This document shows, piece by piece, positions 3,651 through 57,489 of a stretch of DNA of 64,000 bases. The notes beneath the pieces were generated by a model. The model had not been told where the DNA came from, searched no databases, and saw only the letters and a list, made by a program, of their open reading frames with translations. The stretch covers positions 445 to 64,444 of the forward strand of contig CAYHBZ010000001.1 of the NCBI GenBank assembly GCA_964355175.1, read 5' to 3'. Both the position numbers and the translations under genes were made by a program. How positions within the stretch are numbered: position 1 is the stretch's first letter; every line of letters begins with the position of its first letter. Source of the DNA: an uncultured Gammaproteobacteria bacterium (GTDB taxonomy: Bacteria; Patescibacteriota; Patescibacteriia; Magasanikbacterales; GWA2-37-8).

Positions 3651-4403
3651 ATGTACGAGATTGCTCTTGTAGTTTTCTTAGTCATAGTGCTAGGTCTGCG
3701 TGTGGTCCAACAGTATGAAAAAGGCGTAGTGTTTCGCTTGGGTAAGATTATTGGTATCAAAGAACCTGGTTTAAATTGGGTAATTCCATTTATCGACCAG
3801 GTGCGCAAAGTGGATTTTCGCACCATTACTTTGCCAATTTCTCCGCAAAAAATTATTACCAAGGATAATGTATCGGTAGATGTGTCTGCCGTGGCTTATT
3901 ACAAAATCGTGGATGGTGTGAAAAGTATTGTGGCAATTGAAAATGTGATGTCCGCCATCAATCAGATTGCTCAGACTTCCGTGCGTAATATTGTTGGGCG
4001 CTTTCAATTGGATGAAATCTTGAGCGAACGCGAAGCAATTAACAAAGAAATTGCTGTAGTATTGGATGCCCATACCGAAGCCTGGGGTGTGGTGGTATCG
4101 GTAGTAGAAATCAAAGATATTGAATTGCCGGAAGGCATGCAGCGCGCCATGGCCAAACAAGCCGAAGCCGAGCGTGAAAAACGCGCCAAAATTATTGCGG
4201 CTGAAGGTGAATTCTTAGCTTCTCAAAAATTGGCCGATGCGGCCGACATTATTGCCGCTCATCCGATTGCTCTCCAATTGCGCAATTTGCAGACTATGGC
4301 CGAAATTAGTGTAGAGAAGAATTCCACTATCATCTTCCCGGCCCAAATGATGAGTACAATCTCCGATATTAAAAATTTTGTTGCCGGTGAAGGTATAAAA
4401 TAA
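3651..4403 (+). CDS. SPFH/band-7 (stomatin-like) membrane protein
   Basis: N-terminal TM followed by an SPFH core (GVVFRLGK..., RAMAKQAEAEREKRAKII coiled coil). Confidence 0.85.
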   Translation: MYEIALVVFLVIVLGLRVVQQYEKGVVFRLGKIIGIKEPGLNWVIPFIDQVRKVDFRTITLPISPQKIITKDNVSVDVSAVAYYKIVDGVKSIVAIENVMSAINQIAQTSVRNIVGRFQLDEILSEREAINKEIAVVLDAHTEAWGVVVSVVEIKDIELPEGMQRAMAKQAEAEREKRAKIIAAEGEFLASQKLADAADIIAAHPIALQLRNLQTMAEISVEKNSTIIFPAQMMSTISDIKNFVAGEGIK

Positions 4404-18062: not shown

Positions 18063-18070
18063 AATAAAAA

Positions 18071-18105
18071 ATATCCCCCGACTGAGTCGGGGGATATTTT
18101 TTTTG
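18071..18105. terminator. bidirectional terminator between ctpA and era
   Basis: ATATCCCCCGAC-TGAG-GTCGGGGGATAT stem with T8. Confidence 0.8.
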
Positions 18106-31753: not shown

Positions 31754-33070
31754 ATGCCAAAGAAGGTGCAAAAAAAGAAAAAAGTTTTAATGAAAAAATC
31801 AACACCAAAAAAACCGGTTAAAAAACCGGTTGTTAAGATTGTGAAAAAGGAAAAAAAGGTTACGGTCAAAAAACCACAGCCAAAAAAAGTTTTTAAACCT
31901 TTGAAGGCCAAGGCCAAGCTAGAAATTAAAAAACCGAAATTCAAGAAAATAATTCCGGTGGTGGAAGAAGTCGTAATAGAACCTACCAATGACGATCTCT
32001 ACAGATTAATCAGCAAGGGTCGTAATCGTGGCTTTATTACCGATATTGAAATGCTAGGGCTAATAAAGCGTCCGGAATGTTATTTGGATTTATACGAAGG
32101 ATTTTTGGATGCACTAGATCGCAATGGTGTGACTGTGGTGGAATCAAACGCGAATTTGCTCGGTGTAAAACCAGAGCACAAAGAAACCTTGAAACAATTC
32201 CAAGGGGCTCAGCCGGATATGGACAGTCCTTTTGATTTGGGTGAAATTTCCTCCGATTCAATTCAGATGTATTTGCGTGAAATTGGTAAAATTCCTTTGC
32301 TCAAAGGTGATGAAGAAGTATCTCTAGCCAAACGCAAAGAGCGTGGTGATAAAGTAGCCGAACGAAAAATTATTGAAGCCAACTTGCGTTTGGTAGTTTC
32401 GATTGCCAAAAAATTTGTCGGCAAAAGTTTGTCTTTGCTTGATCTGATTCAAGAAGGTAATATCGGTCTTTTCCGTGCCGTGAAAAAATTTGATCACCGC
32501 AAAGGTTATAAATTTTCTACTTACGCCACTTGGTGGATTCGTCAGGCTATCACCCGTGCTTTGGCCGACCAATCCCGTACCATTCGTATTCCGGTACATA
32601 TGGTGGAAACCATCAATCGTTTCCAACAAGTACAGCGCCGTCTTACTCAGGATTTGGGTCGTGACCCAACTCCGGAAGAATTAGCCGCCGAAATGGGCGA
32701 GGAAGTTACCAAAATTCAACACATTATCAAAATTTCTCAGGATACCGTATCGCTCGATGTGTCGGTGGGTGACGACGATGAAGATACTCAGCTCGGTGAT
32801 TTCATCGAAGATGTTAAAAATGTTTCACCAGATCGTGCTGCCGGATTGCAGATCTTGCGTGACTATGTCAAAGAGGCTATCAAGTCGCTTTCTCCTCGTG
32901 AACAAAAAATTCTCGAAATGCGTTTTGGGTTGGCTGATGGTGTAACCCATACTTTGGAAGAAGTGGGTCAGGAATTTGGGGTTACGCGTGAACGTATTCG
33001 TCAGATCGAAGCCAAGGCTTTGGAAAAAATTCAGCATACGGATTTGATTGGTAAGCTTAAGGATTATTAA
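31754..33070 (+). CDS. rpoD: primary sigma factor RpoD with a Lys-rich N-terminal extension
   Basis: Regions 1.2-4 ([23 protein letters not shown], region 4 HTH); residues ~1-80 are KKPVKK-type repeats. Confidence 0.93.
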
Positions 33071-33086: not shown

Positions 33087-33270
33087 ATCAACTAGGTATT
33101 TCCTCGCTCTCTCACCTATGAAAATCCTAGGATAATTTGCAACCCACCGAAGCTCTGGCCGTGAACTCGTCGCTTGGCTCCTCAAACAGCACGGCCAGCC
33201 ACGCTTCGTTGGCTCACAAATTATTTCCTAGGATTTTCAGCGGTTCGTTCGGAGGAAATACCTAGTTGAT
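33087..33270 (+). ncRNA. 184-nt nested palindromic element; candidate 6S-like RNA or MITE
   Basis: Perfect 19-bp terminal inverted repeats, ~20-bp inner inverted repeats, a 13/14-nt internal bubble and a GC-rich apical hairpin. Confidence 0.4.
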
Positions 33271-33280
33271 TCTTAATTAT

Positions 33281-34354
33281 ATGAAAATTGTCTTTTCTGG
33301 TGGGGGTACGCTTGGGCCGGTGACGCCGCTTTTGGCGGTGGCGCAGGCTTATAGGGAAAAATATCCGGAAACTGAATTTGTCTGGGTAGGTACAGTCAAT
33401 GGTCCGGAGCGTGAATTGGTGGAAAGAAATAATATTAAATTTGTCACTCTCACGGCCGGCAAATGGCGTCGTTATTTTTCTTTGTTAAATATTTTTGATA
33501 TTTTCCGTTTTGCTGTTGGTTTTTTTGAATCAGTGGTTTTTATTGTGCGCGAAAAACCCGCTTTACTAATTTCGGCTGGTGGGTATGTCAGCGTGCCTTT
33601 GCATTGGGCGGGGGCGATGTTTGGAATACCGCAGTGGATACACCAACAGGATTTTCAAGTTGGCCTGGCCAATCAGCTGATGAGCAAAACCGCCAAAGTA
33701 ATTACCGTGGCTCTGAAAAAAAATCTTTCCGCTTTTAATATTAAAAAAACTATTTGGCTTGGTAATCCGGTGCGTCCTGAGCTTTTTAAGGGAGATAAAG
33801 CGGCCGCGAAAAAAATGTTTGGTATAAAATCCGATCTGCCGGTAATCCTAGCCATGGGCGGGGGAACGGGGTCGCTGAAATTAAACCAAATGGTGGTGGA
33901 ATCTATTCAACATCTCCAAGGTTTCTGTGAAATAATTCATCTCTCCGGCAAAGAACGTCCGCAAGAATTAGTGGATCATGCCGCCAAATATTTTGATTAT
34001 TATCACCACTATCAATTTTTAAATAAAGAAATGGCCGACGCCTATGCGGCGGCGGATTTGGTAATTTCACGTGGCGGATTTGGTTCAATTTCCGAAATTG
34101 CCGCTCTGAAAAAGCCGGCGATCTTGATCCCGAAACCGGGCCATCAGTTTGATAATGTAAAATTTATTGCCGATGATCAGGCCGCTGTTTTTGTGGATGA
34201 GCGAGTTTCCGACGGTTTGTATCTTGCCAAAATTATAAAAAGGTTGTTAAATAATGATATCGAAAGAGTGCAGATGGCGAATAGGTTGAATAGTTTAATG
34301 CCTTCGGCTGAAAAGGAAGCTTTGGTTGATATAGTTAACAAATTATTAAAATGA
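33281..34354 (+). CDS. murG: MurG UDP-GlcNAc:lipid I N-acetylglucosaminyltransferase (GT28)
   Basis: MKIVFSGGGTLGP N-terminus; C-terminal GGxGS...PKPGHQ pattern; the ORF track extends to a TTG at 33266 inside the palindrome. Confidence 0.8.
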   Translation: MKIVFSGGGTLGPVTPLLAVAQAYREKYPETEFVWVGTVNGPERELVERNNIKFVTLTAGKWRRYFSLLNIFDIFRFAVGFFESVVFIVREKPALLISAGGYVSVPLHWAGAMFGIPQWIHQQDFQVGLANQLMSKTAKVITVALKKNLSAFNIKKTIWLGNPVRPELFKGDKAAAKKMFGIKSDLPVILAMGGGTGSLKLNQMVVESIQHLQGFCEIIHLSGKERPQELVDHAAKYFDYYHHYQFLNKEMADAYAAADLVISRGGFGSISEIAALKKPAILIPKPGHQFDNVKFIADDQAAVFVDERVSDGLYLAKIIKRLLNNDIERVQMANRLNSLMPSAEKEALVDIVNKLLK

Positions 34355-34596
34355 AACATTTTTAACGAATGTTTTGTATTAATAACATGGCAGGACAAGC
34401 AATTGTTTTGTCGGAGTCGCTAACGCGACCAAACACGCAAAGACCCGCTGAGAAATCAACGGGTTCTTTGTTTTTAAATTCTTTAAAATTAGCCAAAATA
34501 TTGTATTTTTTGAAACATAAAGCAGAGTATGCTCGTAGTAATTTCTGGGAGAGGGTAAAAAGGTCGAACTTTTTAATCATCTAATGTATATAAATT

Positions 34597-35418
34597 ATGA
34601 AAAAACTCAATTCATGGCTATTTATGACTCTTTTAGTTGGTTCTCTCGCCCTTGGTATTACCGCCTCTGCTCAGGATTCTGATGATAGAGATGTCAGAGT
34701 AGCGACTACCGCCAGTGTGGATGCCGAAGCCAGGGTAAACTTTGAAGGTTCAAATTTATTTCCTCCACTACCCGATGTATCCAAATTCCTTTCCAAACCG
34801 GCTTCTTCCAGCTCCGTATCCAGTAGTATGCAGAAAATAGTGGAAGCTGATATCAAGCTTGTGGACGCTCGTCTTTCCGCTTTAGCTAGTTTGAAAGTTG
34901 AAATTGATCGCAGTGCTTATTTGACCGCCAGCCAGAAAACTAGTTTGAAAGCTATGGTAGATAGCAATATTTCCGGGTTAACTACTTTGCTTGCCAAGAT
35001 TAAAGCCGATACGGATTTGGCCGTATTGAAAGCTGATTCAGAAAAAATTTATACCGACTTTCGTATTTTCTCCGTGTTTACTCCAAAGATCAAGGCATTA
35101 ATAGCGTTTTATTCTCAAGCCAATTATTCTGGAAAAGCCAATGAAGTATTGGTAGTGGTACAGAATAAGCTGAATGACTTCAAAGATGCTGGTGTGAATG
35201 TAGTGGCCAACCAGGCCGCCCTCGACGCCGCTAAAGCCTCTTTGGTTCAGGCCAACGCCAAGATTGGCACTATGACTACCAAAGCTTCGGATTTGAAACC
35301 TTCGGACTTTCCTACAATCAGCGCTACTGTAATTTCAGACCTGAAAGTAGGTGTTAGACAAGTTCGTGATTTCTTTGTCCAAGTAAGTAATAGTTTGAGA
35401 GCCGCTATTAGATTGTAA
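34597..35418 (+). CDS. secreted hypothetical protein
   Basis: Signal peptide (ASA-QDS), then an Ala/Ser/Lys-rich helical protein. Confidence 0.55.
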   Translation: MKKLNSWLFMTLLVGSLALGITASAQDSDDRDVRVATTASVDAEARVNFEGSNLFPPLPDVSKFLSKPASSSSVSSSMQKIVEADIKLVDARLSALASLKVEIDRSAYLTASQKTSLKAMVDSNISGLTTLLAKIKADTDLAVLKADSEKIYTDFRIFSVFTPKIKALIAFYSQANYSGKANEVLVVVQNKLNDFKDAGVNVVANQAALDAAKASLVQANAKIGTMTTKASDLKPSDFPTISATVISDLKVGVRQVRDFFVQVSNSLRAAIRL

Positions 35419-35428
35419 TATGTAATAT

Positions 35429-35560
35429 GAGCCGGGGCGCTCACGTCGGAGTCCCGACTCAGTCGGGACTCCTCCTGCGGAAACCTTCGGGTTTCCGCAG
35501 ACCTTCCTCCGCAATGTGGGGAAATACTTTCCCCACCACCCCTTGGTTCGAGCCCCGGCC
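35429..35560 (+). ncRNA. GC-rich multi-hairpin element with a tRNA-like 3' end (candidate structured RNA)
   Basis: Three perfect hairpins including a C(UUCG)G tetraloop; 5' GCCGGGG pairs with 3' CCCCGGC next to a GGTTCGAGCC T-loop-like sequence; followed by a terminator. Confidence 0.35.
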
Positions 35561-35570
35561 AAAATAAAAA

Positions 35571-35598
35571 ACATTCTAATAAATTAGAATGTTTTTTT
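35571..35598. terminator. bidirectional terminator (A-run, ACATTCTA/TAGAATGT stem, T-run)
   Basis: Lies between the plus-strand structured element and minus-strand tRNA-Lys. Confidence 0.7.
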
Positions 35599-35599
35599 G

Positions 35600-35672
35600 T
35601 GGGCCGGCCGGGGCTCGAACCCGGGACCTTATCCTTAAAAGGGATCTGCTCTACCAGCTGAGCTACCGGCCC
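35600..35672 (-). tRNA. tRNA-Lys (anticodon UUU)
   Basis: Manual cloverleaf: GGGCCGG acceptor, GCTC/GAGC D-stem, CTTTTAA loop, TTCGAGC T-loop; CCA not encoded. Confidence 0.85.
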
Positions 35673-35747: not shown

Positions 35748-36332
35748 GTGGATAATTGTATGATGGACAAAAAATATCTTCAGTCAATCAGGACTGATCT
35801 ACTTGGTTATGCGCAGAAAAGACGAGAAGTCATAAAGATGTCCGGTGACGCCCAGCAACACTCTAAAAAAGCCATTTTTGCCCTTCAGCGTGATGATAAG
35901 GCGGGTGCCGACGAGCGCTTTGCTTTGGCCAAAGCCTTATTTTTGGATTTGGAAAAAAAGTTTAAAAAAGAACCGGGTTTGCTCGACGAAGGCTCATATC
36001 GCGCCGCACTGGAAGAATATGTGGAAGCGGTTTTATTTCATGATTTTATTGCCGGCAAATCAGTTGGTAAAATAAAAAATATAGCTATAGATTCTGATGC
36101 TTATATTAGTGGCCTGTGCGATGTGCCGGGCGAACTCTATCGTTATGCTATCAAATCCGCCACGGCGCGTGATTTTGAAATGACCAAAAAATGTTTTGGT
36201 TATGCTCAAGAAATTATCGGTGAATTAATTGATATGGATCTTACCGGCTATCATCGTAATAAATTTGATCAGGCCAAACAAGCTTTACACAAACTCCAAG
36301 AAGTAGTCTACGAAGTAAGTTTGCGCGCCTAA
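35748..36332 (+). CDS. translin-family protein (putative)
   Basis: All-helical; SKKAIFALQR, EEYVEAVLFHDF, GLCDVPGELYRYAI resemble translin-family blocks. Confidence 0.5.
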   Translation: MDNCMMDKKYLQSIRTDLLGYAQKRREVIKMSGDAQQHSKKAIFALQRDDKAGADERFALAKALFLDLEKKFKKEPGLLDEGSYRAALEEYVEAVLFHDFIAGKSVGKIKNIAIDSDAYISGLCDVPGELYRYAIKSATARDFEMTKKCFGYAQEIIGELIDMDLTGYHRNKFDQAKQALHKLQEVVYEVSLRA

Positions 36333-53555: not shown

Positions 53556-53825
53556 ATATATAATAATTGGGTAACAAAAAAGGCTACCCGTAACTCTGGC
53601 GGCTCCTTGCGAAGCCCAACAGCCTTTCGACTGCTGACTGGAAAAACAATACCAGAGACGGCGTAGCCATCTCTATGTTTTTCCAGATTTTTGACCATAC
53701 CCGACGGAATTCGACGGGGTTAGGTCTGTTGAATTGTAAAGATAGTATATATTATCTACTTATTTTTATCAACACTTGACACTAATTTTAGTTACTGTAT
53801 AATACTCCTATTCCTTGGTGGAGTA

Positions 53826-56512: not shown

Positions 56513-56558
56513 GTTTAGCCAAATACCGTCCAATCTCATCCCACATGTAGAGCCAACG
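56513..56558. repeat. ~45-bp direct repeat, copy A (copy B at 57288-57335), flanking a high-GC sub-insert
   Basis: TTAGCCAAATACCGTCCAATCTCATCCCACATGTAGAGCCAA versus TTAGCCAACCACATTCCAATTTCATCCCACAACCAGAGCAAT, about 80% identical. Confidence 0.55.
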
Positions 56559-56767
56559 TGCACGAACAGAAGCGAAAGCTTCTGTTTTTTGTTCAACCAT
56601 ACGGGTTTTTATCAATTATCTCTTACAATCTTTTTTATGCATATATCATTGACAAAACCAACCAAATCATGGTAAGTTTATCTATTCCAAAAACCACACT
56701 TCGTGGATATGGGATCTCCGCCGTGAGAGGGTCGCGGTCAACCAAAGTTCTGAACAAGGAGCATGTC

Positions 56768-57253
56768 ATGCTGGCACGTTTGCAAAAGTACATCCAGGCT
56801 CAAGGGTTCCGTGTCCACGAAATGGCCGAATTGGCCCCTGGCGTGATCGTCGTCCACGACAACTACGGCGAACACGGCGGAGAGTTTGATGCCTACATCG
56901 ACGCTGAAGCCATCGGGCCGACGCAACCGGAAATCTGGGGAGAGGAAGGCCTCGTAACTCCTGGTCTCAAGGGCACTGGCCTCGGCGTCTTGCAGGGCGT
57001 TGCCTTCGGGTCCCCCCCCCAAGAGCGTTTTGCAGTTCTTCCAGGCCGCGCCCCAGCTCCTGACCGGCAAGCAGGCGCCGATCTCCTGGTACGAAGCGCC
57101 CCAGCCGCTCGAAGTCCCGCAGGACATCCGGGCGTGAGCCACATCCGGGTCTTACCAACCCAGGCAGAGCTAGGGTTCTCGGATCCTCGCTCTCGCTGTC
57201 TGAATATTAAATTAGTATTTGGACAACGCGAGCGATTCGAGATTTATATATAA
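56768..57253 (+). pseudogene. high-GC ORF with its own AAGGAG RBS; the C-terminal half reads as a frameshifted product after a C9 homopolymer
   Basis: ~62% GC; SD AAGGAG 7 nt before the ATG; the N-terminal ~80 aa are protein-like, after C9 (57012-57020) it becomes Pro/Ala/Arg-rich; a convergent minus-frame ORF is also protein-like. Confidence 0.35.
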
Positions 57254-57290
57254 AATCCAACCATTTTTATGGTTGGATTTTTATTTTGTA
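57252..57290 (+). terminator. terminator hairpin AAATCCAACCA-loop-TGGTTGGATTT with a T-run
   Basis: Perfect 11-bp stem followed by TTTTATTTT. Confidence 0.7.
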
Positions 57291-57489
57291 TTAGCCAACC
57301 ACATTCCAATTTCATCCCACAACCAGAGCAATTCAAAAATAGGCGGTGCATTAAGTTTAGGTTACTGCCTTTGCAAGTTAGTTGGTCTCGCTAAGTTTAT
57401 TATTTTTTGGTATACTGAGTAAGTTGATAAGAAATAATATTTTGTACAGGTGGCTTAATTTATTATATTCAAAGTAGATACTTCATAAT

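Follow-up and report, generated by a model that had tools for sequence, protein, structure and literature searches.

A GC-rich three-hairpin element between a protein gene and tRNA-Lys in a Magasanikbacteria-like genome: a candidate structured insertion in a 3' untranslated region

What is the GC-rich hairpin cluster that lies between the gene of a 273-aa protein and a tRNA-Lys gene in the 64,000-nt window (the whole stretch of DNA analyzed here), and how did it come to be there? The window is a chromosomal CPR segment near Candidatus Magasanikbacteria, and the closest named homologs of the proteins that flank the cluster are encoded in Magasanikbacteria MAGs. The original prediction, made from the sequence of the window, had offered three readings of the cluster, namely a tRNA-like small RNA, a degenerate tRNA half, or a structured 3' UTR.

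Extent, predicted fold and flanking terminator

The GC-rich multi-hairpin element that had been claimed is present and can be delimited to 130 nt of the plus strand, with a GC content of 65% compared with the window mean of 39%. A spacer of 12 nt separates it from the stop codon of the upstream 273-aa gene, and 5 nt lie between its 3' end and a terminator (Table 1). The element comprises three perfect hairpins (H1, H2 with its C(UUCG)G tetraloop, and H3), and the proposed pairing of GCCGGGG with CCCCGGC was recovered as part of an 8-bp closing helix, which encloses H1-H3 in a four-way junction with 39 perfect pairs across these stems and no G·U pair. The minimum free energy (MFE) of the 130-nt element is -76.8 kcal/mol, with 43 base pairs, again none of the G·U type. 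Taken together with the terminator (35429-35600), the region has an MFE of -89.2 kcal/mol versus -46.7 ± 4.3 for shuffled sequences (z = -10), and none of 200 shuffles folded as stably; in a GC-corrected sliding-window scan the element was the top folding outlier of the 64-kb window. The minus strand of the element folds equally strongly and the cUUCGg tetraloop of H2 is present on the plus strand only, hence this loop is the sole structural pointer to the plus strand. The pyrimidine-rich linker between H2 and H3, which is unpaired in both the MFE and the centroid structures, resembles the anti-Shine-Dalgarno sequence (CCUCC), a likeness from which a role might be inferred. Stems composed entirely of Watson-Crick pairs, without G·U, point to a young or DNA-level palindrome more than to a functional RNA of great age.

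Table 1. Features discussed in the text, with positions counted from the first nucleotide of the window
Feature	Position	Strand	Details
Native bidirectional terminator	18069-18100		AAAAAATATCCCCCGAC-TGA-GTCGGGGGATATTTTTTTT
Sigma-70 factor	31754-33070
Upstream long hairpin	33087-33270		184 nt, single hairpin; perfect 19-bp terminal inverted repeats ATCAACTAGGTATTTCCTC / GAGGAAATACCTAGTTGAT
MurG	33281-34354
Intergenic region, murG to 273-aa gene	34355-34596
273-aa protein	34597-35418	+	signal-peptide-like N-terminus; from ORF list
Spacer, stop codon to element	35419-35430	+	12 nt, TATGTAATATGA, with TGTAATA tandem duplication
GC-rich element	35431-35560	+	130 nt
Closing helix	35431-35438 / 35552-35559	+	GCCGGGGC / GCCCCGGC; 8 bp; pair probability >0.94 (0.94-1.0)
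Change in L084	35444		C>T; unpaired 5' junction strand
H1	35448-35472	+	GGAGUCCCGAC UCA GUCGGGACUCC; 11 perfect bp, 3-nt loop
Change in L084	35460		C>G; center of H1 loop; turns H1 into exact reverse complement of the window's H1
H2	35475-35500	+	11 perfect bp, C(UUCG)G tetraloop
Change in L084	35477		G>A; H2 5' stem strand; pairing partner 35498 lies beyond the L084 contig
Linker	35501-35515	+	15 nt, ACCUUCCUCCGCAAU
H3	35516-35536	+	GUGGGGAAA UAC UUUCCCCAC; 9 perfect bp, 3-nt loop
3' junction strand	35537-35551	+	15 nt including GGUUCGA
16-nt inverted copy	35545-35560 / 35606-35621	+ / -	GGTTCGAGCCCCGGCC; exact; arms 45 nt apart
Bidirectional terminator	35566-35597	both	AT-rich 15-bp hairpin, A-run before, T-run after
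tRNA-Lys(UUU)	35599-35672	-	ARAGORN; Rfam tRNA 68.3 bits
Translin-family protein	35760-36332	+	PF01997
LOOT RNA	53601-53726	-	RF03000; 85.1 bits, full length
GC island	56780-57211		~430 nt, GC up to 73%
Structured region	57106-57310		second-best folding outlier of the window

A bidirectional terminator had been placed between the element and the tRNA, and our analysis agrees: its hairpin is followed by U7 on the plus strand and by U6-A-U4 on the minus strand, as is characteristic of intrinsic terminators. It is common to the 273-aa gene and tRNA-Lys. A consensus scanner missed it because its stem has fewer than three G-C pairs.

The copied piece of tRNA-Lys

As predicted, 16 nt at the 3' end of the element form the exact inverted partner of a piece of tRNA-Lys on the other side of the terminator, across a 45-nt gap; the supposition that they cover the 3' end of the tRNA did not hold, since its terminal GGCCCA is left out of the copy. 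The copied piece takes in the T-loop with the 3' strand of the T-stem, preceded by the final 2 nt of the 5' strand of this stem and followed by 2 acceptor nt. In a chance control for the inverted repeat of GGTTCGAGCCCCGGCC, with 3 mismatches permitted, no shuffle reached 2 matches. Within the last 9 nt of the copy lies the 3' strand of the closing helix, while the 5' strand of this helix is a direct repeat of plus-strand positions 35607-35614 within the tRNA-Lys gene; in all, 190 nt contain three copies of GCCGGGGC or its complement (35431-35438, 35552-35559 and 35607-35614). On its other side, the 16-nt arm lengthens the terminator hairpin to a quasi-palindrome of 77 nt. The idea of a degenerate tRNA half applies to these 16 nt only, the other 114 nt of the element being without tRNA similarity.

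A tRNA-like small RNA or tRNA mimic, with an acceptor-like helix and a T-loop that RNase P, RNase Z or the CCA-adding enzyme would recognize, could be read from two features: the UUCGA directly 5' of the 8-bp GC helix, which ends in a single C followed by an A-run, and the 5' segment GCCGGGG-C-GCUCA, which loosely resembles an acceptor strand and the start of a D-stem. Profile searches speak against it. ARAGORN identified five tRNAs in the window but none at 35431-35560 on the plus strand, and no tmRNA; Rfam yielded no match in 35380-35598 at the gathering threshold, and in a 321-nt region no plus-strand match to tRNA, tmRNA or other tRNA-like (mascRNA-type) models even at E <= 10, in agreement with the earlier exclusion of tmRNA. 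Those sub-threshold Rfam matches that do appear are to microRNA-type and Clostridiales-2 models and lie on generic long palindromes or hairpins, and the only match to tmRNA_permuted (13.9 bits, E = 0.71) is on the minus strand, across the T-arm of the real tRNA-Lys. The structure argues in the same direction. Forcing a T-arm-like hairpin (CUUGG-UUCGAGC-CCCGG, with a U·C mismatch) raises the free energy from -76.8 to -62.3 kcal/mol, a cost of 14.5 kcal/mol, because the bases copied from the tRNA supply a strand of the closing helix; the T-loop and acceptor-like end that had been predicted from the GCCGGGG/CCCCGGC pairing are therefore not supported. A CCA end, D-stem pairing and an anticodon arm are all absent, the geometry of a 7-bp acceptor stem and a 5-bp T-stem cannot be drawn, and the T-arm-like segment is followed only by CC and the A-run, with no matching 5' strand. 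In comparison with tRNAs, tmRNAs and tRNA-like structures, the element shares 16 exact nt of the T-loop, 3' T-stem strand and acceptor start of tRNA-Lys, but it cannot form a cloverleaf or a T-arm, and the bases in common act as a helix strand. We consider the tRNA-mimic reading hardly credible, and the case illustrates that an RNA cannot be called tRNA-like on the strength of a perfect 16-nt match to a tRNA T-arm beside a GC helix.

The remnant of an integrase att site was also considered and rejected, since the tRNA fragment has the inverted orientation, not the direct one, and stops short of the tRNA 3' end. Retron ncRNAs, integron attC sites, ends of the IS200/IS605 type and ribozymes found no support in Rfam, and neither a reverse transcriptase nor an integrase or transposase was detected among the 13 neighboring ORFs scanned.

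Distribution in related lineages and possible origins

Orthologous loci were retrieved through homologs of the 273-aa protein and of the translin-like protein; further contigs reached via variants of the latter start inside the tRNA or come from lineages that lack the element. It is absent at the same gene order from five Magasanikbacteria lineages (L003-5, L006, L007/L010, L008 and L085), in which MurG is 86-90% identical to that of the window (compared for L003, L007, L008 and L085). Their sites consist of the stop codon, a spacer of 10-40 nt, a terminator hairpin and tRNA-Lys, and nothing more; each lineage has a terminator at the same position, and the terminator sequences are all different. 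Three Logan contigs carry the element. Two of them (L001 and L002) are identical to the window along their entire length, and the third is from a sister strain (L084), whose 273-aa gene has 92.2% nucleotide identity and whose contig reaches the first 59-60 nt of the element. Thus, the window strain and L084 differ from the five other lineages in the presence or absence of the element at orthologous sites, and on this comparison it is a recent insertion restricted to one small branch. Because the five sampled lineages live without it, the element is dispensable.

L084 and the window differ at 3 of 59 element positions (Table 1), two of the three changes falling in unpaired positions. In the 273-aa gene the same pair of strains gives pS = 0.206, dS = 0.24 and dN = 0.044, and the divergence of the element is below the synonymous expectation (binomial P = 0.00085 against pS). 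This evidence of constraint consists of 59 nt of one second sequence, with compensatory changes beyond its reach. Next to it, the 12-nt spacer cannot be aligned with its L084 counterpart GCGCTAACGACA (5 of 13 columns identical), while the flanks are 92-95% identical. Such a pattern would be expected either if the element is under structural constraint, or if it is younger than the split of the strains and was gained separately or by exchange. The low divergence could reflect a recent transfer between strains instead of purifying selection, and the unalignable junction would favor independent or repeated insertion.

L001 and L002, which derive from two unrelated samples, both end at position 35540, inside the element, between the CCACC and the CC of a C-rich run, and two further contigs (L011 and L012) begin at 35643. 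Consequently, the segment 35541-35642, including the inverted-repeat arm within the element, occurs in no independent assembly retrieved. With k = 31, the common end point means that in these samples the 30-mer 35511-35540 can be extended in two ways; a polymorphism of the C-run, a co-occurring strain or variant that shares 35511-35540, or a loss of coverage at the 77-nt quasi-palindrome would explain it.

These observations bear on the possibility that the element is a small palindromic insertion, selfish or neutral, of the kind represented by MITE, REP, ERIC, RPE or GC clusters; it would spread and be lost at the DNA level, with its hairpins kept by palindrome correction and any effect on the mRNA incidental. 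We regard this as the main alternative, possible rather than probable. It is in keeping with the presence/absence pattern at an orthologous site among close lineages, with a GC-rich sequence in an AT-rich genome, with terminal inverted repeats of 8 bp (GCCGGGGC/GCCCCGGC) and 39 perfect stem pairs without G·U, with a divergence from L084 that is far under the synonymous rate and yet accompanied by a wholly different junction, and with the finding that H1 of L084 is the exact reverse complement of H1 of the window. On the other hand, only one copy occurs in the 64-kb window, the flanks show no target-site duplication (ATATGA, or ACGACA in L084, on the left and CAAAAT on the right), and the terminal repeats are just 8 bp long, half of them being perhaps older local sequence. 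The scan of 13 neighboring ORFs, as stated, detected no transposase.

Database searches did not enlarge the family either. H1 (GGAGTCCCGACNNNGTCGGGACTCC) has no homologous copy in 185,579 GTDB representative genomes; its single exact match is the terminator of an unrelated rpoC gene in a Stahlbacteria MAG, which we judge to be a chance resemblance between hairpins. Scans of IMG/VR found neither H1, H2 and H3 nor the terminal repeat of the palindrome at 33.1 kb, and BLASTN against phages and plasmids gave no match to the element. A scan of JGI metagenomes with an ill-chosen pattern, CCTTCCTCCGC-N20-50-GGTTCGAGCC, returned 71 matches, none of them like the element: most, including those with a recurrent 64-nt spacing, represent one conserved protein-coding gene of high-GC bacteria, and the rest are scattered high-GC sequences. 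The concatenated open frames of the element matched none of 5.8 billion protein clusters, a weak negative which argues that it is neither a fragment of a known gene nor a repeat commonly translated by gene callers. A 46-codon ORF (ATG at 35427 to TAA at 35567) was discarded, as its ATG is missing in L084 and it has no ribosome-binding site. The element thus matches nothing known in Rfam, the GTDB representatives, viral contigs, phages, plasmids and translated proteins searched, and a literature search on palindromic or mobile small elements of CPR bacteria found nothing relevant.

A second structured insertion with a patchy, mobile-like distribution, 2.2 kb upstream, between the sigma-70 gene and murG, is a further point for the palindromic-insertion reading. 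This long hairpin (fold z = -12; no Rfam match) is present at the same site, with 91% identity, in the most distant relative, L008, and is lacking in the closer relatives L003, L007 and L085, which have at most ~30 nt there. The pattern is typical of a MITE, and the insertion looks like one; it shows that insertions of hairpins are gained and lost among these lineages. The contigs L001 and L008 break at or within this hairpin, L001 at its center.

The comparison with described families of small palindromic elements is instructive in this context. ERIC/IRU, Correia (CREE) and Rickettsia palindromic elements (RPE) are intergenic palindromic insertions of 100-150 bp that are co-transcribed with flanking genes; what defines such families is a recognizable consensus together with a high copy number in each genome. 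The element resembles them in its length of 130 nt, its stable fold, its intergenic position, presumably within a 3' UTR, its polymorphism between close lineages and its short terminal inverted repeats. It differs in being represented by one visible copy and one orthologous copy in a sister strain, without target-site duplication, and in its composition of three unrelated hairpins within a closing helix, whereas theirs is one long imperfect palindrome. GC clusters of yeast mitochondria (30-50 bp) are highly repeated and confined to the organelle; together with similar organelle elements they share with the element the GC-rich hairpins in AT-rich spacers and the patchy occurrence among strains, but the element is single within the 64-kb window.

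An origin by local DNA rearrangement was weighed as well. In this scenario the palindrome of the terminator would have seeded template switching or fold-back repair, by which the 3' region of tRNA-Lys was copied in inverted (35545-35560) and direct (35431-35438) orientation; the rest would be filler DNA, and the element a structural accident without function. The three copies of GCCGGGGC or its complement within 190 nt and the extension of the terminator to a 77-nt quasi-palindrome point this way, as does an 11-nt match, GAAACCTTCGG, that links H2 with the upstream coding region (35295-35312). So does the closest lineage without the element, L003, which has AGTCCTGGCCG at the same spot, identical at 9 of 11 positions to the reverse complement of the tRNA 3' region (shuffle P = 0.016); this is a weak hint that the inverted tRNA fragment may predate the hairpin cluster. 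However, a simple fold-back should have copied the 8-nt spacer GGCCCACA by the hairpin, where AAAAT is found instead, and rearrangement accounts neither for the source of three unrelated, perfect GC-rich hairpins nor for the fact that, in a strain at dS = 0.24, the element is conserved much better than expected of neutral sequence. On balance, we think rearrangement unlikely. A native bidirectional terminator elsewhere in the window (18069-18100) bears on the source of the hairpins: the H1 core CCCGAC-T[C/G]A-GTCGGG also makes up its stem and loop, and its 15-nt core is identical to H1 as found in L084, hence the hairpins of the element look like ordinary GC-rich terminator stems.

Predicted transcription and genomic neighborhood

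The position of the element, between a stop codon and an intrinsic terminator, suggests how it could be expressed. No sigma-70-like promoter was predicted upstream of it, and the TAATAT boxes in the corresponding spacer of the window strain are missing in L084; other promoters of the genome fit the consensus, e.g. that of the translin-like gene at 11 of 12 positions. With no conserved promoter, the element is most likely transcribed as the end of the 273-aa gene mRNA. By these two arguments a structured 3' UTR fits best among the three options initially considered, with the transcript, including its ends, its strand and any effect on stability, being what we infer. We propose that a GC-rich hairpin cluster of ~120-130 nt was inserted into the short spacer that separates the convergent genes for the 273-aa protein and tRNA-Lys and that it would be transcribed as the end of the mRNA, stopping at the shared terminator. 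The RNA is predicted to fold into the very stable four-way junction, with the 8-bp closing helix around three perfect hairpins, and its effect is most likely structural: this fold may act as a block that resists 3' exonucleases and stabilizes the 3' end of the mRNA; alternatively, a 3'-UTR fragment with an exposed CCUCC linker may be released. The element may also buffer the two converging transcription units. We assign a probability of about 0.4 to this reading, in which a structured element recently inserted in the 3' UTR of the 273-aa gene is co-transcribed to the shared terminator and serves as a stable 3' block and possibly also as a source of 3'-UTR fragments. Its part concerning an insertion follows from the comparison of orthologous sites, and its part concerning a present function is our extrapolation from fold and position.

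The element has in common with 3'-UTR stabilizing stem-loops and 3'-UTR-derived sRNAs the location between stop codon and intrinsic terminator, the lack of a promoter of its own, the strong structure and the exposed C/U-rich single strand; it differs from them in being known from sequence alone and in its absence from close relatives that possess the same gene. It would be either an RNA module with a stabilizing role or a palindromic element of small size that may be mobile, and the 3'-UTR reading and the palindromic-insertion alternative differ more in emphasis than in kind. A bolder variant, which we regard as improbable, would make it the founding member of an undescribed class of small CPR elements that capture a piece of the adjacent tRNA T-arm. 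Such a class could consist of structured 3'-UTR RNAs, in which the closing helix and UUCGA recruit tRNA-processing enzymes and thereby set the 3' end of the mRNA, or of small mobile hairpin elements that home to the terminators of tRNA genes by the 16-nt identity.

If the 3'-UTR reading is true, the locus shows the birth and retention of a structured non-coding element in a reduced CPR genome of ~1 Mb with little DNA between its genes. Within 2.5 kb there are two hairpin-forming insertions, each polymorphic between closely related lineages, which suggests that such genomes are more changeable than their size would lead one to expect. Elements of this sort break short-read assemblies, as illustrated by Logan contigs that stop inside both. 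The wider importance is limited by the number of copies known, one full and one partial.

The 273-aa protein itself matches no Pfam family, and only six homologs were found, all of them CPR/Magasanikbacteria-like. On the other side of the element, the translin-family gene is followed by genes for a Mur ligase, DivIC and a PPIase. Translin-family proteins (PF01997) are uncommon in bacteria; here the gene adjoins tRNA-Lys in divergent orientation, an arrangement kept in every related lineage whose contig has both genes. The window also encodes a full-length LOOT RNA, a member of a family described partly from the OD1 and TM7 (CPR) lineages, which is consistent with the CPR origin of the window.

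Two other regions deserve mention. One is the intergenic DNA that separates murG from the 273-aa gene, which is structured as well as conserved in every relative (L003 ~1216-1380, L007 ~1546-1713, L085 ~3737-3975) and contains a GTCGC-TAAC-GCGAC hairpin and a terminator-like hairpin. It has no Rfam match; gene calls place in it a plus-strand ORF of 35-44 aa or a minus-strand ORF of 72 aa, and it could encode a small protein or a small RNA. Further downstream, an island of unusually high GC content in this 39% GC genome lies inside an ORF (56558-57253, plus strand, 231 aa) without a Pfam family, and a strongly structured region (57106-57310) overlaps it; neither the island nor this region has an Rfam match. 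The island may be foreign DNA or an unusual gene.
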